A stretch of 64,000 nucleotides of DNA from a virus: the IMG/VR virus record IMGVR_UViG_2881341136_000002, positions 1,733-65,732 of that record; one strand, given 5' to 3'. Numbering within the stretch: the stretch's first letter is position 1; the number at the start of each line of letters is the position of its first letter. The position numbers and the translations under genes are program-made. The notes below the pieces were generated by a model. That model was not told the origin of the DNA, did not search any database, and was given only the letters and a program-made list of their open reading frames with translations. Shown piece after piece: positions 4,992-40,519 of this stretch.

Positions 4992-5757
4992 TTGCTACAA
5001 AAATCGCACCAACAGACCAGTCTGTCACACCAGCCTTAACTCGATCAGATATCAGTTCAATATTCATCTCCGCGCATTTTTCAGCACTTGCGCCGCATAT
5101 ATGCAACTCATACAGAAGAGATGGCGCATCATCACTGAGATCAAGGAGTCGATTTGCTGAGTTCAATTTTTGTTGCAAATCCAGCTTGCTAGTCATTAGC
5201 ATGGATATTGATTTTATCTCGCTATGCTTGTTATAACGCTCAGAAATATCCGCGTCTCTCTTTCCTTTCAGCATATTTCCCTCATCATTTTCACGTAGCA
5301 GTTCATCATATTTTCCTGTTTTTGTTATGAAGTTATGCATTTCAAGAAAGTATGAATAATCAGCCGAGTTGGACGAGTAAAAGCACCCCTCATAAGCTAG
5401 CGCGGGGCTTTTTGTGGCAGGAATGGCTCTCCTTGTGATCTCAAGAGCTTTATCAGACCCACCTCGCCAAAAAGAGCACAGAATGTAGTGCCGCCATGTA
5501 ACAATATCATGTGGCATAAGGCTCACAGCTTCCTCAGCTAACTGTATCCCCTTATCCAAATTATTAATTGTAAAATAATAAAAAAACCAAGCGGCGCAAC
5601 TAAGACCCGGATCTTTTACATCAAGTATTTGTCTGAGTGTTCTCTCCTTAACGAACGGAGTTAACTCGCACTCAAAACATAGCACGGGAGTAAGGCTCTC
5701 CACCACTCTGTTTACAGTCCTGATGTCATTTGATTTTTGCGTCTTTGGGGTAGCCAC
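4951..5757 (-). CDS. Hypothetical protein with TPR-like helical region (moron), GTG start
   Basis: 268-aa AT-rich ORF; GIQLAEEAVSLMPHDIVTWRHY TPR-like segment; overlaps the HEPN gene. Confidence 0.6.
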   Translation of the reverse strand: MATPKTQKSNDIRTVNRVVESLTPVLCFECELTPFVKERTLRQILDVKDPGLSCAAWFFYYFTINNLDKGIQLAEEAVSLMPHDIVTWRHYILCSFWRGGSDKALEITRRAIPATKSPALAYEGCFYSSNSADYSYFLEMHNFITKTGKYDELLRENDEGNMLKGKRDADISERYNKHSEIKSISMLMTSKLDLQQKLNSANRLLDLSDDAPSLLYELHICGASAEKCAEMNIELISDRVKAGVTDWSVGAIFVASDSELETYVSFTE

Positions 5758-27232: not shown

Positions 27233-27550
27233 CTAACCCTTGCAAATGACGGTTGCGAAATAAGCGCCGCGGCATGGGGTGTCACGCCCGTAATGCCATG
27301 TTGTCCAGTTACCTCCACTGATGGGGCTGACCTTAAACCACGATTGATAAATGCGGGCGTATGGGTTAATTCCCACTAACCATTGCTCTGCGTCATCAGC
27401 GTCGATGATGTTTTGATGCACTGCGGCCTGAATAACGTCAGCCTCACTGTAATCACCACGCATCACTAACATGCGCTCCTCGTCGTTGGTCAGGTAATCG
27501 ACAATTCCGTCATGTCTTCCTTTTTTAGTTGGCTTGATTAATTCACTCAT
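27233..27550 (-). CDS. Hypothetical protein
   Basis: Coupled ORF in operon. Confidence 0.6.
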   Translation of the reverse strand: MSELIKPTKKGRHDGIVDYLTNDEERMLVMRGDYSEADVIQAAVHQNIIDADDAEQWLVGINPYARIYQSWFKVSPISGGNWTTWHYGRDTPCRGAYFATVICKG

Positions 27551-28572
27551 GCGTCACCGTCCTTGCGTTCCACCTGCGGAGCAGCGGAAACCATGGCGGT
27601 GTATATGTCGCTATAGTTCACGTCAAGAGAGCCGCCCATACCTCTGGTTACTCCACAACCAATAGCGGCACCTGTCATTTCCGGCGTCGGCGCTAACGGC
27701 ACCAATACCCAATCATCCGGAATTACCGGAGATTTGCCACCTCGGAGCATGGCGGCGCGGCAGGCGTTCCAGCCTGATTTTTGCTGGACGATTCCAAATT
27801 GCCTTAGCATCTCAGCAACAGCGATGAATGAGCCAAATTCATAATATTTCGCCGGATCATTATCTTGATGGCGTCCACCTAGATGCGCTGCCCAATCTCC
27901 ATAGGTCCATTCAAAACGATCGCTATGTTGTTCATCCGGCACCGTGTAAGGCTGGCTAATGCTTGAATGCAGAGCGCGGGTTTCACGCAGGCATGTATTC
28001 CAGGCTATGAAAGCGGCCTGTTGCTCTGCGTCTGTACGTAGACCCCACTTAGCTCTTGCTTCATGCATTGTAATGCCGGACGGGAGCTCTAGTTGGCTTG
28101 CGGCTGGTGGAAGCGAATAGACGAGAGCGCCAGCGGGGACGTCACATAGCCACGTCACTGATCCATTGTCTTGGTCAATTTCACCAATCGGTTCGGCTAC
28201 CATAATCGCCTTTCCGTCATAAGCTGCGAGTCCCGTCCGTAACTGCTGGTTCTCTTCTTGGTGCTCTTTTGCCGTTCTGCGTAGCTTGTTCGCCAGCACT
28301 ACTGATTCGGACAGCTCAGATCGCAGTGATAGCACTGCGTCGTTTAGTCGCGATATTTCGGCAATGACGCCAGCCTGAACGCTTGTATTGACCGGGATAT
28401 TCAGCGCGGAACGGATGCTGTTTAGTTGCAAATCCATGTCAGCGTTTGCCGCCACCAGCATTTCCATGCGATTAGCGATAGCGTTTAGTTTTTCGCGCCC
28501 CTGCTCCGTGTCTGCTATGCCAGCAACGGTGCGCATCGCTTCGATTAATTGAGCTGTTGATAATGTGGTCAT
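27547..28572 (-). CDS. Ead/Ea22-like mosaic protein
   Basis: WNACRAAML and VIPDDWVLVP.PT.EM modules. Confidence 0.6.
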   Translation of the reverse strand: MTTLSTAQLIEAMRTVAGIADTEQGREKLNAIANRMEMLVAANADMDLQLNSIRSALNIPVNTSVQAGVIAEISRLNDAVLSLRSELSESVVLANKLRRTAKEHQEENQQLRTGLAAYDGKAIMVAEPIGEIDQDNGSVTWLCDVPAGALVYSLPPAASQLELPSGITMHEARAKWGLRTDAEQQAAFIAWNTCLRETRALHSSISQPYTVPDEQHSDRFEWTYGDWAAHLGGRHQDNDPAKYYEFGSFIAVAEMLRQFGIVQQKSGWNACRAAMLRGGKSPVIPDDWVLVPLAPTPEMTGAAIGCGVTRGMGGSLDVNYSDIYTAMVSAAPQVERKDGDA

Positions 28573-28823
28573 TTGGTCTTGCCTCGTTTTTGGTCGTGAT
28601 ATTCGCGCCAGTGATTCAGGCGCGCTCTAAAATGTTCCCGATACTGCTCCGCTACCGTGTCCAGCTCTTTTTCAACGTGGCGCCGCAGTGTTTTTCCCGC
28701 GATTAACGAGTTGATCAGCTGATTGGCTCGTTTATCCAGTTCCAACTTGTCCTGAAACTCTCGCGGCCACTCAGCGATATTGATCGGTAGCCCAGCGGGC
28801 AGATAATCCGAGTTTTCGTACAC
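28569..28823 (-). CDS. Hypothetical protein
   Basis: Coupled ORF in operon. Confidence 0.65.
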   Translation of the reverse strand: MYENSDYLPAGLPINIAEWPREFQDKLELDKRANQLINSLIAGKTLRRHVEKELDTVAEQYREHFRARLNHWREYHDQKRGKTK

Positions 28824-28825
28824 GG

Positions 28826-29305
28826 TTATTCACCCGTCATGCCGCGACCGGCCCGGTCTGAATTCAGATAAAAATCTTTATCAACCGACTCAAGAGTGAA
28901 TTCAGGCGTCGGTTTTTCGTGACGTGTAATTTTTACGTGCGGGGAATTGATCATTGATGTCAGTCGCCCACTGAGTTTTATCAGCGTCGTACCATGACCG
29001 GGATAGTGTTTATCCAGTGCTGCCAGAATCTGTGTTTTAGTCAGCGTCTTCCCGATCATCACGCTGATGAGGCTTTTTGCATCCAGCGTTACATGTGGCT
29101 TGGCCTTTTTCTGTTTCCGGCTAGCAGTTTTAAGGAGTGGAGCGAACTTAGGTTTAACAACCTGAACTGGCGCAGGAGCCGGCACGTACGGTGAACGTGT
29201 GCGAGCGCGGGCGTTTGCGTTCATAGTCCAGATGATCCGCGCGGTGTGGTCGCAGCCATCGTCGGTCATGAATGGGCGTGCGTAAATAACATCAATTGTA
29301 ATCAT
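28826..29305 (-). CDS. Hypothetical (possible DNA-binding) protein
   Basis: ORF after helicase with motif RBS. Confidence 0.65.
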   Translation of the reverse strand: MITIDVIYARPFMTDDGCDHTARIIWTMNANARARTRSPYVPAPAPVQVVKPKFAPLLKTASRKQKKAKPHVTLDAKSLISVMIGKTLTKTQILAALDKHYPGHGTTLIKLSGRLTSMINSPHVKITRHEKPTPEFTLESVDKDFYLNSDRAGRGMTGE

Positions 29306-29352
29306 TTGGTCTTGCCTCTTTGGTCGGTTAATTAGGCGCTGGTCAGGCGCGG

Positions 29353-32183: not shown

Positions 32184-32408
32184 TTAAACCCCCAGCGCGT
32201 CCGCTATCTGCCGTACTGCGTCCTGATATTCTTCAGGTGATAGGTTCAGCATTTTTAATGCCGCCTTGCTTTTCTCGTATTGCTCCCACACGGAAAGCGC
32301 AACAACGCGACGGCCATCAAATACCGGTTCAACATCTTCAATGCTGACGGGCTGGCCATTCAGCCGGAATCCGTTCCGGTATGTAATCCTGTCGATTCGT
32401 GTAAGCAT
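32184..32408 (-). CDS. Hypothetical protein (start reassigned to MLTRIDR)
   Basis: ATG preceded by the GAGGCAAGACCA motif. Confidence 0.7.
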   Translation of the reverse strand: MLTRIDRITYRNGFRLNGQPVSIEDVEPVFDGRRVVALSVWEQYEKSKAALKMLNLSPEEYQDAVRQIADALGV

Positions 32409-32421
32409 TGGTCTTGCCTCG

Positions 32422-33114: not shown

Positions 33115-33146
33115 TTAAAACCTCGAGATTGATTACCATGACAAAC

Positions 33147-33210
33147 AGTTTAATTTTACGAACAATAAAAAGTCAAGAATACGAACCTTATTTGTTCGAA
33201 AATAAGAACA
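33147..33210. promoter_or_regulatory. OR operators (AGTTT-N7-CGAAC type)
   Basis: AGTTTaattttaCGAAC at 33147; GTTCGaaaataaGAACA at 33194. Confidence 0.65.
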
Positions 33211-33866
33211 TGAAAAAAATGAACATACACGACCGAATCAACTTAAGAATGGCCTTGCTTACATTGAAAAGCAGGCACTTAGTTGATGCTACCGGGGCTT
33301 CCAAAGCGACAGTAAGTCAGTGGGTGAATGGCGGTTCCGAACCCTCTGCCAGATACATCCCTTCGCTTGCTAGAGTTCTCAGGGTTTCAGAAAACTGGCT
33401 CTTAGAAGGGGGGCCATTAATTGAGCCTCATCCAGAGACTGGGCACTCAATACCCATCCGCGTTAGAGACATACCGCTAATAACTCTTGAGCAAGCTGCA
33501 ATCTGGCACTCTTTAATGACCGACTCCTTTGAGGACGAGATAGAATTAATAGAGGTTCCTGATCTGGTAACGCCCTATGCGTTTGCTGTGAGAATGGAAA
33601 ATAATTCTATGATGGACCTATCTGGGCAGGGGTTGTCGATACCAATAGGTTCAATACTGATAACTGATGTGGGCAGGCAGGTAAAATCGGGCTCAATTGT
33701 TGTCGCAGCGATCGAGAATCACCGTGAAGCGGTAATAAAACGCTACGTTGCTGACGGCCCAAACAAATATTTAATGTCTATAAATCAAAGTTTTGACAAA
33801 ATACTTTTTAATGAAAAAAGCACGATTATTGGCGTCTGTGTAAAAATGCAAATGAACCTAATCTAA
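33210..33866 (+). CDS. cI: CI repressor (HTH + S24 peptidase), start reassigned to MKKMN
   Basis: ASKATVSQWVNG HTH; RMENNSM Ser motif and AVIKRY Lys motif. Confidence 0.9.
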   Translation: MKKMNIHDRINLRMALLTLKSRHLVDATGASKATVSQWVNGGSEPSARYIPSLARVLRVSENWLLEGGPLIEPHPETGHSIPIRVRDIPLITLEQAAIWHSLMTDSFEDEIELIEVPDLVTPYAFAVRMENNSMMDLSGQGLSIPIGSILITDVGRQVKSGSIVVAAIENHREAVIKRYVADGPNKYLMSINQSFDKILFNEKSTIIGVCVKMQMNLI

Positions 33867-33890
33867 CCTAACCCACCCTCTTTACAAACA

Positions 33891-33913
33891 AGCCGGCTGA
33901 AGCCGGTTTTTTT
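33891..33913 (+). terminator. Terminator after cI
   Basis: CCGGC-TGAA-GCCGG followed by T7. Confidence 0.8.
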
Positions 33914-33928
33914 GTGTCCAACACAAAA

Positions 33929-33982
33929 AGTTTATCGTTACGAACAAAACGGGATTGACAGAAAAGTTCGTTTATATAAACT
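33929..33982 (+). promoter_or_regulatory. OL operators overlapping pL
   Basis: AGTTTatcgttaCGAAC (33929) and GTTCGtttatatAAACT (33966) flank TTGACA at 33955, with a -10-like TAAACT at 33977. Confidence 0.7.
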
Positions 33983-34075
33983 AATATCCATCAGCAGCGA
34001 ACGGGCAGAACTCCTACGAAGCAATACCATGAGTTACTTTGTGACCTGCCTAGCTAAGTAGCCAGTCCGAGGCAA

Positions 34076-34516
34076 ATGAATATGACGACGGTTGATGAAT
34101 GTATAGACCATGGAAGAGTTGGAAATGCAGATGGGTACCTTGCTACAAACAGAAAAATAGATGGTGTTTTAAGAAGTTGCTATCTGCACAGGTTGGTTTA
34201 TTGCCAATCACAAGGGTTAACTCTTGAAGATATTAACGGATTAGTTGTCAGGCACAAATGCGACAACCCGCGGTGCGTAAACCCGAACCACCTAGAAACA
34301 GGGACGGTAAGGGACAACAACATAGATTGCGTTTTGAGAGGGAGACACCCAAAACCAAACGCAAGGATCGATTTGGAAACCGCTGAAAAGATACGCAGCG
34401 AATATAAAACGAGAGAAGTAACACAGAAGCAAATTGGCGAGAAGTACGGACTTTCTCGAACGCACATCGGAGGTATTGTGCGGCATGAGGCTTGGAAAGC
34501 AAACGAAATTACGTAG
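34076..34516 (+). CDS. HNH homing endonuclease with C-terminal HTH
   Basis: VRHKCDNPRCVNPNHLETGT..DN motif. Confidence 0.88.
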   Translation: MNMTTVDECIDHGRVGNADGYLATNRKIDGVLRSCYLHRLVYCQSQGLTLEDINGLVVRHKCDNPRCVNPNHLETGTVRDNNIDCVLRGRHPKPNARIDLETAEKIRSEYKTREVTQKQIGEKYGLSRTHIGGIVRHEAWKANEIT

Positions 34517-35114
34517 CCACAGCGGGAAAGTGTGGCAAGGCAAGACCAACCCACATCGCAGACCACGCTCACTGAGTGGCGATGTGGGAAATCAACCAGG
34601 CGCAGTTGCGCTTTTTGGGTAACACGTTCTGACAGCGGGAAAGACTGCGATCACACCAGAGATACGGTCGTAAGTTCTGCTCCGATTGGAGTGGTAAAGC
34701 GACGCCGGATAGCGTAACCGGCACAAATTTGATTTGGAACGCTCCCCACCTGACGGTTTCTGCGGAACTGAACGGTGTGTTCTCCTGACGCATAGAGAGT
34801 CAATGCTAAGGCCGTCCGATGGCGCGTAAACGGGGTTAGCCTGAGTCCTCGATAAACCACGGATAAAACAGTGCCGTCCGCTCCACGTTACGGAGCACTG
34901 AATTTAAAGCATGGCGAAAGCCGAAAGACTTGAAGGCGATTTTCTCGGTTTGCGCGCTAAAGCATAGCGGGGGTGAAATCGGGGCGGAGAAGCAGAATCC
35001 GCGATGTCGGGACTTGATACTTCCGGCCAGACCAACAAGCCGACTGGTAGCGTTACTACCCTTTGCACCTAATCCGGCGAGGTAGCGCTGCCGGACCGGA
35101 TTAGGTGAATCGCT

Positions 35115-35290
35115 CACAACAGATAAGAGCATTTAGGGGACGGCGACTGTTTTACAGGCTGACAAGCGAACCGGAGATAGTGCTCTTATCGTTGTGGTGA
35201 ATGCACAGGCTGATGTGCCAAACCAGACTGGAAACAGTCGGGAGTCAGGCAAGACAAAGCTGGGATAACCGGTGGCGGCCACCACACAAA
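35115..35290 (+). ncRNA. C4-like antisense RNA with upstream a1/b1-like hairpin
   Basis: TGTGGTG/CACCACA closing stem, GTGAATGCACAGGCTGATGTG head; 16-bp CACAAC-GATAAGAGCA/TGCTCTTATC-GTTGTG leader stem. Confidence 0.65.
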
Positions 35291-35293
35291 ATT

Positions 35294-35352
35294 TAGCGAT
35301 CAGGTGATTAATGGGTTTCCCTGCCCGTTACTCGGTTCGACTCCGAGCGCTA
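35294..35352 (+). other. tRNA-like element (acceptor-like stem plus T-arm, no complete cloverleaf)
   Basis: TAGCG/CGCTA closing stem; CTCGG-TTCGACT-CCGAG T-arm; central TAATGGG/CCCGTTA hairpin. Confidence 0.5.
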
Positions 35353-35403
35353 TTCGAAATCACGTTGCCATCGTGAGAACTGCGAGAGAACTGCTGTGTA
35401 GTC

Positions 35404-35450
35404 ATTGGGCGGTGTGGGTTTTCGACCTTTACCCTATCCGCCAATTTTTT
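35404..35450 (+). terminator. Intrinsic terminator in the early-left operon
   Basis: ATTGG(G)CGG...CCGCCAAT stem followed by T6. Confidence 0.65.
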
Positions 35451-35459
35451 CGCAGACGT

Positions 35460-35596
35460 AAAAAAGCCCACCGTTAGGCAGGCTTCGTTACCCCGGTTAA
35501 CCGACCAAAGTATCACCGGGAGCGACAGAGGGGACCAACCCTCCATCGAGGCAAGACCAATGACAACCGAAGCCGACATTGATCGGTGTGATTATA
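35460..35596 (-). ncRNA. Predicted ~125-nt antisense RNA with its own -10 and terminator
   Basis: Minus-strand TATAAT at 35596-35591 (weak -35); terminator AAGCCTGC-N6-GTGGGCTT-TTTT at 35485-35460. Confidence 0.5.
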
Positions 35597-35901
35597 CGAG
35601 GAACGCTATGAAAGCGCCAGAAATCACAATCACGCTGTACCTCCATCTCAGCGCTTATACAGCTAAACCATTAATTGGCACATGTGACATGTCACAATAT
35701 GGTCATGCGTTAATTTCAACGTGTGAAGTCTCTGTGCCATTCCCTGAAGTAACCCCCGAATATCTGGCTGAACGCAAGATGTCAGCACTAAGAGAGCAGC
35801 AACAAAAGGTTCTCTCCGACGCTCAAACCAAAGCGAATGAACTTGAAGACCAGGTTCAGAAATTGCTGTGCGTTGAGCGCCAGTCAAAAAACCACGCTTA
35901 A
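35560..35901 (+). CDS. Hypothetical protein (alternative start MKAPE)
   Basis: ORF with motif RBS; coiled-coil C-terminus. Confidence 0.7.
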   Translation: MTTEADIDRCDYTRNAMKAPEITITLYLHLSAYTAKPLIGTCDMSQYGHALISTCEVSVPFPEVTPEYLAERKMSALREQQQKVLSDAQTKANELEDQVQKLLCVERQSKNHA

Positions 35902-35919
35902 CCGACCGAGGTAAGACCA

Positions 35920-38175
35920 ATGCCAAACTTTATTGTGGATTACGATCCCAAAAAATCAGCCCTGAAAAACGGGGCTGTTTCGTTAGCTATCACCGTTGAT
36001 GCAAAAAATAAAAAGCTGGCTGAGATGTCAGCGACCATGAAAATGGAGGAGGAGTTTCCGGGCGCAAGCGACAACTTTCTCAAACCGCGTGTAATAGAAG
36101 ACGCGATCGGCTCTCCACGCCCCGCACTTAATAAATTCGATGAAGTATTCCCGAAAGAAAACGAGGTTGTAGATGGTGTCTGGCGGCGTATCGAAGCGCC
36201 GGCACAAGCTAACGATCTCGTCGATTTCTCGACACTGTCGTTGCGCGAAAAAATCGCTGCGTTCGCGCTGTATGCGCAGGTTGAAATCACAGAGCATGAG
36301 TTTTCGATGGTGTGTGATTATCTCGATCTGCCTGATGGCGATGGGGATGCTGACGCAGACACGGACAAGCTGATCCGTGTACTCAGCGGCATTGAATTGC
36401 TGGAGCAGGCCACTGACGACTTGCTGCTCAATGTAGTGAATTCGGTTACTGCTCAATTCCCATCTATCGCCGATGTACCAGAGCGAGAAATTCTGGCGTT
36501 CGTTGATACGCTGACAAACAAACCCAACGAAGATACTCCAGCAAAAATACCATCGATCGCTGGGCTTGATCGTGAGCGTCAGTACACCCATACGTACGCC
36601 ATGTTGGATAAAGAAGTTGCGGCGGCTCTTGTGCGTGACGCAGCAGACTGCTGGGAACTGACAGCCGATCATGTCCGTGAATCTAATGTCCTGATTAATC
36701 AAAACGGTGAAGAATTCCAGCGCTGGTCTATGGAATTGCGTACGGCAGAAAACGCACTAAAAATCCCCCGCCCTATTGTTTTCGCGCTGGTTAGCGCAGG
36801 GAAAAAACGCCCTGAACTACTGAAAGACGCAAACGCCCGCCGCCAGTTCGTGGTTGATTTTCTCGCAGAGCATATGCAATCAGAATCCACCATATCGCAG
36901 AACCACAAAGCAGAAGGAGGGATGTCCACTGAAGAAGAAGAAGAACACGCCAGAGAAAATCTGCGCAGAGGATTTGAGGAATTTAGCAGGAAAACTGACG
37001 CAATATTCGACAATTCCCCTCAGGTTGAAAACCTCGGTCGTGGCCGATTCTCTATTGATGGCCTAACTGGTGACTCAGCATCAAATCAGGGCGAAAAAAC
37101 GGAAGTGGCCAGCGCAATCAATACACCTAAGGCTGAATCAAAGCAGCCTGAAACCGTTACGCCCCTCACACAAGGCGGCGCAGCTGGTGAACAGGTTATC
37201 AGCGACAGCACCGCGCAGCAGGCAAAAGAGTCGCTCGATCAATTGGGGTACGGTGTTTACGCAACCGAAACGGAAGCACCAGCACCAGCACCAGCAGACG
37301 ATTTTCAGCAAAGGGCTGAAGCTATAGAAGCCGAGATCGCAAAGAAAACCGATGGGGAACAAGAAAACCTCAATATCTGGAAACGGGTACAGCGCACAGA
37401 TCCGCGCTACACGAAACCGCTTGCAGGTGCAGGATTTGAAGGTACCAGCATTAACAGCGAATACATGATCATGCGGGCTACTGAAATCTTTGGCCCAGTC
37501 GGTAGCGGCTGGGGTTATCGCGTTTTGGAAGAGAAAATGATCCCTGGCGCGCCGCTGAGTGAATCGCTCTATGACGACAACAAAAAATTCATTGGCGTAA
37601 AACTGCTGCGTGATGCGGACGGGTCGCTTATCAGTGAATTGAATCACTCGCTGAAAATCGCCTTTTGGTACCTCAGCGATGAAAGCGAGCGTTCAGAGAT
37701 CGAAGCATATGGCGCAACGCCGTACATGTACAAAACCAAGACGGGGATTAAAGCAGACTCTGAAGTTATGAAAAAGAGCCTCACTGACTCCATCAAAAAA
37801 GCGCTGTCGCTGCTTGGTTTCAGTGCGGACGTGTGGCTCGGTATGCATGACAATCCTGAATACGCGATCGAAAACGCGATTGAATTCCAAATCAAAAACG
37901 CGAGCGATCGGGCTGAAGATACCGTGCGCCTGCGCACCGAGCTTGATGAGAAATTCACGAAGAACGCAGCGACGCTGGAGAAAGCTGTCAACGTCAACGA
38001 GGTTAACAAGGTGTTCGGTACCATCGCTCGTGAATTGGAAGTACACAGAAAAAACGCAGAGGCCAAAGGCGACACTGAGCACGCTAGATACCTCGCTGGC
38101 CGCCTGCGCCGCCTGAACCAAATCAAAGACGAGCGCATTTCAGCGCTTAACGCCACTGAAGGAGAAAAAGCATGA
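35920..38175 (+). CDS. RecE-like N-terminal region fused to a Rad52/Sak-like annealing domain
   Basis: N-terminal PRPALNKFD RecE-like segment; C-terminal FGPVGSGWG...KKSLTDSIKKALSLLGFSADV. Confidence 0.7.
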   Translation: MPNFIVDYDPKKSALKNGAVSLAITVDAKNKKLAEMSATMKMEEEFPGASDNFLKPRVIEDAIGSPRPALNKFDEVFPKENEVVDGVWRRIEAPAQANDLVDFSTLSLREKIAAFALYAQVEITEHEFSMVCDYLDLPDGDGDADADTDKLIRVLSGIELLEQATDDLLLNVVNSVTAQFPSIADVPEREILAFVDTLTNKPNEDTPAKIPSIAGLDRERQYTHTYAMLDKEVAAALVRDAADCWELTADHVRESNVLINQNGEEFQRWSMELRTAENALKIPRPIVFALVSAGKKRPELLKDANARRQFVVDFLAEHMQSESTISQNHKAEGGMSTEEEEEHARENLRRGFEEFSRKTDAIFDNSPQVENLGRGRFSIDGLTGDSASNQGEKTEVASAINTPKAESKQPETVTPLTQGGAAGEQVISDSTAQQAKESLDQLGYGVYATETEAPAPAPADDFQQRAEAIEAEIAKKTDGEQENLNIWKRVQRTDPRYTKPLAGAGFEGTSINSEYMIMRATEIFGPVGSGWGYRVLEEKMIPGAPLSESLYDDNKKFIGVKLLRDADGSLISELNHSLKIAFWYLSDESERSEIEAYGATPYMYKTKTGIKADSEVMKKSLTDSIKKALSLLGFSADVWLGMHDNPEYAIENAIEFQIKNASDRAEDTVRLRTELDEKFTKNAATLEKAVNVNEVNKVFGTIARELEVHRKNAEAKGDTEHARYLAGRLRRLNQIKDERISALNATEGEKA

Positions 38176-38672
38176 CAACCACCGCTATTGCGCTTGCGCA
38201 TGATTTGCAGAAGCTCCAGCAATTGCTGGAAACGTCCGACGATTTAACGCCAGAAATGATCGCCGACACAATGGAAGGGTTAGAGCTGGAGTTAGCAGAC
38301 AAACTGGATGGCGCATACATCCACGTCCGCAACCTGGAGGGATTGGCAAAAACGTGTGATGAAGAAGTTAAGCGCCTTACCGACCGCAAAAAATCGTTTG
38401 AGAACCGCGCCAAATCAATCAAGGGCTATGTGTTGAATTGCCTGCTGGCTGCCAACCTCGACAAGCTCAAAACGACCACCAACACATTTACAGCCCGTAA
38501 GGGTGTCGCAAGTGTGATTATCGATAATGAAGGCCTGTTGCCTGATGATTTGGTAGCAGTTCAAACTATCGTGGCGCCGGACAAAAAAGCCATCAAAGAG
38601 GCCATTGAAAACGGCGTGGAAGTACCCGGTGCGCACATTGAGATTGGCGCGCGTTCTCTGCAAGTTCGATAA
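38172..38672 (+). CDS. Siphovirus Gp157-family protein
   Basis: IADTMEGL...PDKKAIKEAIENGVEVPGA. Confidence 0.85.
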   Translation: MTTTAIALAHDLQKLQQLLETSDDLTPEMIADTMEGLELELADKLDGAYIHVRNLEGLAKTCDEEVKRLTDRKKSFENRAKSIKGYVLNCLLAANLDKLKTTTNTFTARKGVASVIIDNEGLLPDDLVAVQTIVAPDKKAIKEAIENGVEVPGAHIEIGARSLQVR

Positions 38673-38707
38673 CGGCTGACCACCGTATAGCAAGCGAGGC
38701 AAGACCA

Positions 38708-38884
38708 ATGCTAAAAATGTCGGCAAAGCGAGGGGACGTTATCCATATCGTCTTACCAGATGGCCGGAACGGAATGATAGCAGTGCATTCGCGTAGCGTG
38801 TTCGCATTCCACTTTCCGCCTGATGTTAGGGTGACGTGCGAACGTCGCCAGCCGGAGCAACTGATTAACGATAATCAGAAATAA
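38708..38884 (+). CDS. 58-aa CsrA-like protein (not in ORF track)
   Basis: Own translation MLKMSAKRGDVIHIVLPDGRNGMIAVHSRSVFAFHFPPDVRVTCERRQPEQLINDNQK; motif RBS; ML..S.K.GD.I.I and P.DV.V..E pattern. Confidence 0.6.
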   Translation: MLKMSAKRGDVIHIVLPDGRNGMIAVHSRSVFAFHFPPDVRVTCERRQPEQLINDNQK

Positions 38885-38930: not shown

Positions 38931-39137
38931 ATGCAATCATGGAAACCGGGCAAATGCCTGCTATCTGATTTCGACATCAAAATCGGTCGGCTGTCTGCGA
39001 GCGTTAGAAAAATTACCCTAACGCAACAGGATATAGACCAATCCTGCGCAGCGGCCGACGCAATCATTGATAAATTAAGGCAAGACCATGACCGACCTAT
39101 TAACCGACGACGAGCTAATAGAACTGACAGGCTATAA
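38931..39137 (+). CDS. Hypothetical protein overlapping xis
   Basis: ORF with SD sequestered in a 10-bp hairpin. Confidence 0.5.
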   Translation: MQSWKPGKCLLSDFDIKIGRLSASVRKITLTQQDIDQSCAAADAIIDKLRQDHDRPINRRRANRTDRL

Positions 39138-39303
39138 GTATGCGTCAAAGCAACGCGCCGCTCTAACCCGATCCGGCATTTCGTTTATCACCCGTAGGGA
39201 TGGGCGACCCAGCGTCACATGGGCGGCAATTAATGCCAGCCTATCCACTGTGAAAGCTGAGCAATTTAAAGACGTTGAACAGCCTAATTTTGATGCGATT
39301 TAA
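39088..39303 (+). CDS. xis: Excisionase (DUF4224-like)
   Basis: LTDDELIELTGYKYASKQ...RRDGRPSVTW; directly before int. Confidence 0.82.
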   Translation: MTDLLTDDELIELTGYKYASKQRAALTRSGISFITRRDGRPSVTWAAINASLSTVKAEQFKDVEQPNFDAI

Positions 39304-40381: not shown

Positions 40382-40395
40382 AGGGATTTCAGGCA

Positions 40396-40417
40396 CAAAA
40401 AAACCGCCTTACGGCGG
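40396..40417 (-). terminator. Terminator downstream of the tRNA 3' end
   Basis: Minus strand CCGCC-GTAA-GGCGG-T7. Confidence 0.75.
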
Positions 40418-40464
40418 CTCACGACATTGCACATAAGTGCTTGTTTTAATTCTTTTTAAATCAA

Positions 40465-40519
40465 TGGTGCCCGGGGCGGGACTTGAACCCGCACAGCGCG
40501 AACGCCGAGGGATTTTAAA
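40465..40519 (-). pseudogene. leuZ: 3' half of tRNA-Leu(TAA), attachment-site remnant shared by both prophages
   Basis: Minus strand TTTAAAATCCCTCGGCGTTCGCGCTGTGCGGGTTCAAGTCCCGCCCCGGGCACCA; 5' half absent. Confidence 0.9.

Follow-up and report, generated by a model that had tools for sequence, protein, structure and literature searches.

What does a short RNA, predicted to be transcribed against the early genes of a prophage, pair with? The question is raised by positions 35460-35596 of the window, by which we mean the whole 64,000-nucleotide stretch of viral DNA analysed here; it is part of a 66-kb IMG/VR provirus whose nearest named relative is Pectobacterium phage ZF40. The initial annotation of this DNA had predicted a minus-strand antisense small RNA (sRNA) with three copies of the hexamer UUGGUC and a stretch exactly complementary to a motif shared by the ribosome-binding sites of early genes. 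Judged by sequence comparison with related phages, 35460-35584 (-) is a real and widely conserved small RNA gene. The reading that we favour, with a probability of roughly 0.6, is that this RNA would pair with the early-left transcript in cis and with the shared motif, called the tag here, in trans, and would thereby repress a phage-private set of early genes together. The most telling result for a link between RNA and tag, as far as sequences can tell, is that the seed of the RNA and the tag change together between lineages.

The small RNA gene

The predicted RNA of 125 nucleotides (nt) extends from G35584 to 35460 on the minus strand (35460..35584). A TATAAT hexamer was indeed present at 35591..35596 (-), where it directly adjoins the anti-Shine-Dalgarno sequence of the gene on the opposite strand, and it is preceded, over a spacer of 17 nt, by the expected weak -35 element (TGGCGC, 35614..35619 (-)), which falls in codons 2-4 of the opposite gene. 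The -35 position reads TTGTGC in the largest group of relatives. A -10-like hexamer (TATAAT, TAAAAT, TATACT or TATATT) is found in the relatives at a fixed distance from the 5' hairpin P1 of the RNA, right after the anti-Shine-Dalgarno sequence and CAT of the opposite gene. The Rho-independent terminator, placed by the annotation about 125 nt downstream of TATAAT, was recovered as a scan match at 35479-35466 followed by TTTTTT; its full stem of 10 bp spans 35486-35463, and the run of six U ends at 35460 (35460..35486 (-); helix 5 of the covariation analysis below). The minimum free energy of the 125-nt RNA is −56.4 kcal/mol (z of −5.0), and none of 200 shuffled sequences folded as well. Rfam at the gathering threshold and ARAGORN gave no match in the window. 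A minus-strand open reading frame (ORF) at 35328-35579 was rejected as coding; it passes the terminator with no stop codon, and the relatives do not have it.

The RNA folds into four hairpins, the last of which is the terminator. The 5' hairpin P1 (35555..35584 (-), −12.8 kcal/mol) carries the first anti-motif copy, CAUUGGUC, as its 3' arm. Its 5' arm, GAUCAAUG in the window and GAUCAGUGA in the largest group of relatives, resembles the target GACCAAUG and yet pairs via conserved G-U wobbles (helix 1, with compensatory changes in 6 of 9 pairs). P1 is followed by single-stranded UUGCCU(C) at 35549..35554 (-), the anti-Shine-Dalgarno stretch of the seed; the cost of opening UUGCCUC is 1.15 kcal/mol. 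This word is invariant in alignment A1, the sequences of which were chosen by a pattern that holds it. Hairpin P2 (35523..35548 (-); helix 2, compensatory changes in 8 of 10 pairs) presents the second anti-motif copy as a UUGGUC hexaloop (GACCAA at 35533-35538 (+)). In P3 (35491..35521 (-); helices 3 and 4) the third copy lies within CUUUGGUCGGU (GACCAA at 35503-35508 (+)) and is shown by an inner stem of 3 bp, one pair of which changes from G-C to A-U in 21 of 60 rows.

Most of what had been said of these elements holds. The three UUGGUC copies correspond to GACCAA on the plus strand at 35503, 35533 and 35555, two of them are hexaloops (unpaired with probabilities of 1.0 and 0.93), and the motif copy at 35548-35562 has its exact complement in the RNA, as CAUUGGUCUUGCCUCG. 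The anti-motif had also been described as unpaired. The predicted fold agrees with this for UUGCCUC (probability of 0.78), but not for CAUUGGUC, which is taken up by P1 (probability of 0.0).

The same four hairpins were obtained with all 19 representative sequences, each folded alone. A covariance model (R1) was built from 19 sequences, including that of the window, using a structure voted from the single-sequence folds; this consensus was preferred to an RNAalifold structure of a MAFFT alignment, in which misaligned P3 stems had produced a long-range helix that was partly wrong. R1 finds one copy in the window, with 92.1 bits and an E-value of 1e-26; the next match scores 15.5 bits. In the R1 alignment (108 hits, 63 distinct), 96.4% of the pair cells are standard versus 39-58% with slid partners, percentages that lean towards R1 as the alignment is fitted to the model; the single-sequence folds are independent of R1. 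Compensatory changes are seen in 22 of the 39 base pairs across the 63 distinct sequences, and none of 500 shuffles reached any of the five covariation measures. G-U occupies 368 cells and A-C only 8, and the helices are paired to 96.6% on the sRNA strand versus about 81% on the mRNA strand; the excess of G-U over A-C indicates that the structure belongs to the minus strand. Overall, the antisense sRNA gene stands as proposed: its structure, promoter position and terminator are conserved, with covariation. In one related contig (L210, 12166-12317) the sRNA is present twice, the second copy being divergent (50.9 bits) and about 1 kb away.

A tag at the starts of early genes

The tag was found at eight sites in the window when up to three mismatches were allowed, against 1.8 expected, and none of 100 shuffles reached eight. 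There are seven exact copies of GGCAAGACCA and one of GGTAAGACCA, every one of them on the coding strand and located at 28.5-39.1 kb. Six of them abut the start codons of unrelated genes, at 28572, 29305 and 32408 on the minus strand and at 35920, 38708 and 39088 on the plus strand; the other two lie in the leader at 34537, without a start codon, and inside the sRNA gene. The early-gene starts thus do share a motif, as had been noted, and perfect or near-perfect partners of the anti-motif occur on both divergent operons.

The trans sites differ in their make-up. A perfect 15-nt tag, GAGGCAAGACCAATG, is present at the start of the 74-aa phrog_2465 gene (gene 32184-32408; site 32406..32420 (-); seed duplex of −30.8 kcal/mol), and the start of the 58-aa phrog_2482 gene (38708-38884) has a perfect 15-nt tag as well (38696..38710 (+)). 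At the start of the exonuclease gene (35920-38175) the site at 35898..35922 (+) consists of TTAACCGACC, a complement of the P3 loop, and then GAGGTAAGACCAATG, which has one difference from the tag with a G-U pair still possible (−29.4 kcal/mol). The 159-aa gene at 28826-29305 begins with TTAACCGACCAAAG, a 14-nt exact complement of the P3 loop, directly followed by GAGGCAAGACCAAATG (29303..29331 (-); −27.3 kcal/mol), and the 341-aa gene at 27547-28572 with GACCAA, a spacer and again GAGGCAAGACCAAATG (28570..28595 (-); −31.4 kcal/mol). The sixth site, AAGGCAAGACCATG (39077..39090 (+); −24.8 kcal/mol), belongs to a 71-aa ORF (39088-39303) that sits where ZF40 has its excisionase. Apart from this last site, the duplexes of seed and tag lie at −27 to −31 kcal/mol. 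The order of the P3-loop complements directly upstream of the tags at 29305 and 35920 fits antiparallel pairing with P3 and the 5' seed. The element in the leader (34517..34551 (+)) is a hairpin, GCCACA...TGTGGC, followed by AAGGCAAGACCAACC without a start codon; it is a possible site for the sRNA on the early-left leader.

The comparison was extended to 120 related loci, in which 371 trans copies of the tag occur in 192 different contexts. ATG lies 0-2 nt from the tag in 137 of the 192, and most of the other 55 have an ATG that overlaps the last A of the tag; a further GACC(A/G) is found no more than 30 nt upstream in 92. The tag GAGGCAAGACCA(A)TG was counted 437 times in trans in 1467 kb of loci with an anti-tag RNA, versus once in 1239 kb of IsrB-like loci without the anti-tag. 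The P3-loop complement CCGACCAAAG occurs 47 times in trans in the anti-tag loci, where 2.9 are expected, and never in the IsrB-like loci without the anti-tag. The two most widespread tag-bearing families (the 74-aa phrog_2465 and the 56-60-aa phrog_2482 proteins) both begin with Met-Leu; the conserved sequence hence reaches a few bases into the coding region (ATGCT).

The seed and the tag differ between lineages, and they do so together. The seed core UUGCCUC of the window's subfamily is matched by the tag core GAGGCAA. In loci L053 and L239 the pair is AGAACUC and GAGUUCU, in the second prophage of genome G001 it is AAAACUC and GAGUUUU, and in genome G047 AUACCUC and GAGGUAU. In each of these four lineages, two to four trans copies of the matching tag are found at a distance of a few kb from the RNA gene. 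Across the four, the RNA keeps CUCG and AUUGGUC as the flanks of the core, save for one G-to-U change in the RNA of G001.

The sRNA is cis-antisense to the 5' untranslated region of the phrog_2479 gene, the start region of which holds the sRNA promoter. This family adjoins the promoter in at least 80 of 99 distinct relatives (phmmer E-values of 2e-12 or better), with its start codon beside the promoter in all of them; the equivalent in the window is 35608. The ATG at 35560, which had been taken for the start of a tagged gene, is not conserved, and the conserved start of the overlapped gene is the one at 35608. Among 95 distinct contexts of the tag copy inside the sRNA gene, the next triplet is ATG in 58, ACG in 21, ATA in 6 and something else in 10; 35 of the 58 ATG contexts open a frame of 4 codons, and 9 are open in frame as in the window. 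ZF40 has ATA at this place. Since the ATG is not conserved, this tag copy is kept for a reason other than the start of a protein. In the ZF40 locus (L001), gp08 (5174-5662) is annotated from a start 196 nt ahead of the one conserved in phrog_2479 and crosses the whole sRNA gene; its annotated start is probably over-extended.

Relationship to IsrB

In a permissive Rfam scan, isrB (RF01386, listed under the name 'isrB Hfq binding RNA') aligned over its full length at 35461-35547 (-), with 21.9 bits and an E-value of 0.46; the gathering score of this family is 35 bits. The 11-nt loop CUUUGGUCGGU is identical in the two RNAs. Four related loci (L004, L008, L018 and L088) pass the isrB cut-off with 47-99 bits, and in the reciprocal test R1 matched the true isrB of L004 (99 bits with the isrB model) at 37.7 bits with an E-value of 7e-9, a test that is not fully independent as its loci had been pre-selected by the shared loop. 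R1 also matches a group of RNAs in E. coli, located beside YdaE-family genes of Rac-like prophages, at 38-44 bits.

IsrB-1 and IsrB-2 belong to the prophages Gifsy-2 and Gifsy-1. These RNAs, of 88 and 94 nt, have been mapped experimentally between sbcA (an exonuclease gene) and STM1010, to both of which they are antisense; they are expressed in lysogens and induced upon starvation (PMC2330248). Salmonella IsrB is reported to be associated with ProQ and has been assigned a 'likely role in lysogeny maintenance', with the mechanism undefined (PMC5391140). The RNA of the window resembles IsrB in being an antisense sRNA beside the exonuclease gene (one gene upstream of it) in the early-left recombination region, in the hairpin with the CUUUGGUCGGU loop and the terminator close behind, which are supported by covariation in the window RNA, and in the reciprocal match of the covariance models. 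It differs in its length (125 nt versus 88 and 94 nt), in the hairpin added at its 5' end, the unpaired anti-Shine-Dalgarno stretch and one more UUGGUC hexaloop, and in having multiple perfect trans sites at gene starts, which the IsrB loci do not have. By these matches it is a member of the IsrB superfamily, distantly related to Salmonella IsrB and with an anti-start-site seed of its own.

The distribution of the RNA is wide. The pattern of the CUUUGGUCGGU loop in a CCGG stem is found in at least 120 viral contigs, some of them with true isrB, and a stricter pattern that also demands UUGGUCUUGCC on the 5' side in at least 119 viral contigs and 40 species genomes. Most of the 40 are from Providencia, Xenorhabdus, Photorhabdus, Proteus, Morganella, Yersinia, Serratia, Rouxiella, Pectobacterium and Symbiopectobacterium, which places the RNA in prophages of Morganellaceae, Yersiniaceae and Pectobacteriaceae. 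When R1 was run on 151 random Enterobacterales genomes, most of the weak matches were bare terminators, and the family members were L283 and L284. Annotation by Rfam has thus missed an sRNA family that is present in at least 119 viral contigs.

Proposed mechanism and alternatives

Putative repression of early-gene translation in trans is well supported by the comparison between phages. The timing of expression, the repression as such and any role in lysogeny or exclusion are what we infer from it. In cis the RNA would pair with the early-left transcript. In trans it would pair with GAGGCAAGACCA(A)UG, so that in at least six early genes of the two divergent operons both Shine-Dalgarno sequence and start codon would be covered. 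The free UUGCCUC may act as a toehold that nucleates on GAGGCAA, after which a perfectly matched target would displace the 5' arm of P1, held more weakly by G-U pairs; we propose such a toehold mechanism because this arm is target-like and yet G-U paired. Many tags have an extra GACCA(A) or AACCGACC box just upstream, with which the UUGGUC loops could make the initial contact. Alternatively, the hexaloops might kiss the mirrored loops of the early-left transcript in cis. The YUNR U-turn pattern is known from the recognition loops of antisense RNAs, and both UUGGUC hexaloops start with UUGG, which fits it. The expected outcome is a block of ribosome binding, probably with cleavage of the duplex, and one RNA can in this way probably switch off the whole set of early genes together. 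Transcription from PL should interfere with the sRNA promoter, given the position of this promoter within the phrog_2479 start region. This would favour the sRNA when PL is repressed, which is consistent with the detection of IsrB in lysogens.

Several observations weigh against the proposal that the RNA acts on the tags in trans from a gene of its own. The co-variation of seed and tag spans only four lineages, and it could also be explained if all tag copies on the mRNA strands, including the one under the sRNA, share another reader. Near IsrB proper and the YdaE-adjacent group of E. coli, no consistent trans sites were found at 9-11 nt of exact complementarity; trans action is thus not a property of the whole superfamily. 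In a scan of duplex energies over the whole window the tag sites rank in the top 0.1-0.3% and are not separated from the GC-rich background, and the scan was not used as evidence. Half of the long seed is sequestered in P1, so that pairing in trans requires P1 to open. The sRNA promoter is not listed by a sigma-70 scan, because its -35 element (TGGCGC) is weak. Finally, the only RNA data are unstranded Logan contigs of a related prophage from one study. One such contig, at a depth of 56-131, spans 34535-35628, with neighbouring contigs at a depth of 5-25; strand, ends and level cannot be read from these contigs, and carry-over of DNA is possible. In run X4 the high-depth contig ends about 14 nt before the predicted 5' end of the sRNA, which is a hint only.

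Some of these observations are what one would expect if the RNA controlled only the overlapping early-left transcript, that is, phrog_2479 and the exonuclease operon. It would then act by duplex formation or by interference between convergent transcripts, as is presumed for IsrB; the tag would be read otherwise, for instance by the ribosome (as a translation enhancer) or by a phage protein, and the tag inside the sRNA gene would be one more mRNA-strand copy. IsrB proper and the YdaE-adjacent group share the position and architecture of the RNA and are without trans sites, the sRNA promoter overlaps the start region of phrog_2479 in all relatives, which is ideal for interference in cis, and the burial of half the seed in P1 points the same way. 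We consider a purely cis-acting RNA unlikely, however. In most relatives the tag inside the sRNA gene lacks a usable start, and yet it is retained in full and changes in step with the trans copies across four lineages. By means of G-U pairs the 5' arm of P1 mimics the target, and it is on the sRNA strand that the structure of the RNA is under selection. Trans tags are also accompanied by additional P3-loop complements.

Less probable still is an arrangement like that of CsrA and CsrB, in which a protein reads the tag and the UUGGUC RNA, or its GACCAA complement in the mRNA, serves as decoy or sponge. The candidate reader is the 58-aa product of 38708-38884, which is conserved in these phages, is itself tagged and has an AF2 model with five beta strands (predicted local distance difference test score, pLDDT, of 86); the display of the same hexamer in hairpin loops is also reminiscent of a sponge RNA. 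However, the binding of a protein to GACCAA in mRNAs would not extend to the complementary UUGGUC of the sRNA, selection maintains the hairpins on the sRNA strand, and the tag is without the GGA core that CsrA binding requires. The CsrA-like protein model mentioned in the initial annotation gained no support: neither Pfam (E-values up to 1) nor a profile search of the PDB matched the 58-aa protein to CsrA, no CsrA structure was among the Foldseek or wide VIA-align matches of its AF2 model, and it has no significant structural neighbour (best VIA Z of 4.8). A weak lead came from an Atlas features search, in which a cluster with CsrA in 59% of its members scored 0.86, below an AbrB/MazE-like cluster that ranked first (0.93). 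We give hardly any weight to the idea that no independent minus-strand RNA is made and that the hairpins instead serve the early-left leader on the plus strand, for instance in attenuation or processing. The region does lie within a long structured leader, and the unstranded RNA contigs of the relative cover leader and sRNA stretch more deeply than the neighbouring regions. The preponderance of G-U over A-C cells (368 vs 8) favours the minus strand, though; the U-run makes the terminator functional on that strand only, the -10 hexamer is conserved at a fixed distance from P1, and the homologue IsrB has been mapped experimentally on the antisense strand.

We retain an RNA that would act in cis and in trans as the preferred reading, and compare it with systems in other phages. 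In its proposed action it resembles a base-pairing sRNA with multiple targets. The c4 RNA of phages P1 and P7 and the CI RNA of satellite phage P4 are antisense immunity RNAs, and the pairing of c4 covers a ribosome-binding region. They resemble the window RNA in being phage small RNAs with exposed sequences directed against repeated complementary sites in early transcripts, for the shutdown of early genes. They arise by processing of the very transcript that they target and control a single operon, whereas the window RNA has a convergent promoter of its own and sites at many separate gene starts in both operons. The RNAs are not related by sequence or in Rfam; the C4 family of Rfam had no match in 33800-36000 at E-values up to 10, nor in the whole window at the gathering score. 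Cluster K mycobacteriophages carry start-associated sequences, a conserved motif of about 13-15 nt directly upstream of some start codons. We know of no complementary RNA linked to these. Both their sequence and their hosts are unrelated, and the tag of the window differs in having a co-occurring and co-varying anti-motif RNA. RegA of phage T4 is a translational repressor protein that recognises the start regions of many early mRNAs; as with RegA, one phage factor would repress many early mRNAs together, the proposed reader in the window being a base-pairing RNA instead of a protein. In the literature we did not find a description of the tag, the anti-tag RNA or their pairing.

If the preferred reading is correct, these phages have a private post-transcriptional regulon, in which unrelated early genes are wired to one RNA by an identical start-site tag, and it becomes clear why a 15-nt spacer is kept invariant around the ribosome-binding sites of these phages. 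For IsrB, known since 2008, a mechanism has been lacking, and its relative in the window offers a concrete one that can be tested; the toehold-plus-hairpin design and the co-varying pairs of seed and tag are open to direct compensatory mutation. A wider and more tentative suggestion, which we would sooner doubt than accept, is that a group of temperate phages of Enterobacterales tags its early genes privately, with a single toehold-gated RNA of three anti-tags that closes all of them and could also silence incoming heteroimmune relatives. The tag is common to phages with different repressors, so that the RNA of a prophage could act on such relatives. This would amount to RNA-based superinfection exclusion, would explain the joint diversification of seed and tag between lineages, and would add an RNA layer to phage immunity and exclusion.

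Neighbouring genes and the early-left leader

The gene order around 35460-35584 places the sRNA candidate antisense inside the early-left (recombination) operon. On the plus strand a cI-like repressor gene (33129-33866) and its terminator are followed by a PL-like promoter (33955-33982), an HNH endonuclease gene between this promoter and the leader (34076-34516), and about 1 kb without a credible ORF upstream of the sRNA gene (34570-35460 (+)). Beyond the sRNA gene lie, also on the plus strand, the phrog_2479 gene (35608-35901; 97 aa), the exonuclease gene (35920-38175; 751 aa) and a Mu Gam-like gene (38172-38672), and then small genes, the excisionase and the integrase. ZF40 is without a gene at the position of the HNH endonuclease and has gp09 instead, further inside the leader.

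The leader (34570-35460) is a mosaic of at least three modules, each of which is separately conserved, in the same orientation and unannotated, in unrelated phages. The module at 34733-34890 is found in Dickeya LIMEstone-type lytic phages, beside a tRNA cluster; the one at 34910-35098 in Citrobacter phage phiNP and in E. coli chromosomes; and the one at 35179-35283 in Erwinia phiEt88, HK629, Klebsiella phages and lambdoid prophages of E. coli, between the Q and holin genes. None of the three has a match in Rfam. A 'C4-like RNA' that had been suggested at 35115-35290 overlaps the third module; the Rfam C4 model had no match there at E-values up to 10. The RNA contigs of the relative cover the leader more deeply than its neighbours. 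ZF40 and 12 of 160 related loci share the hairpin-plus-tag element of 34517-34551, which lies 100-1050 nt away from the sRNA; the spacing suggests that the leader is an insertion hotspot between two fixed elements.

Shortly beyond the integrase gene, at about 40387, the RNA contigs of the related strain part from the window. The sequence at 40471-40510 (-) resembles the 3' part of a tRNA (T-arm and acceptor), with no tRNA called there by ARAGORN, and 40387-40510 is probably the attachment-site end of the prophage.

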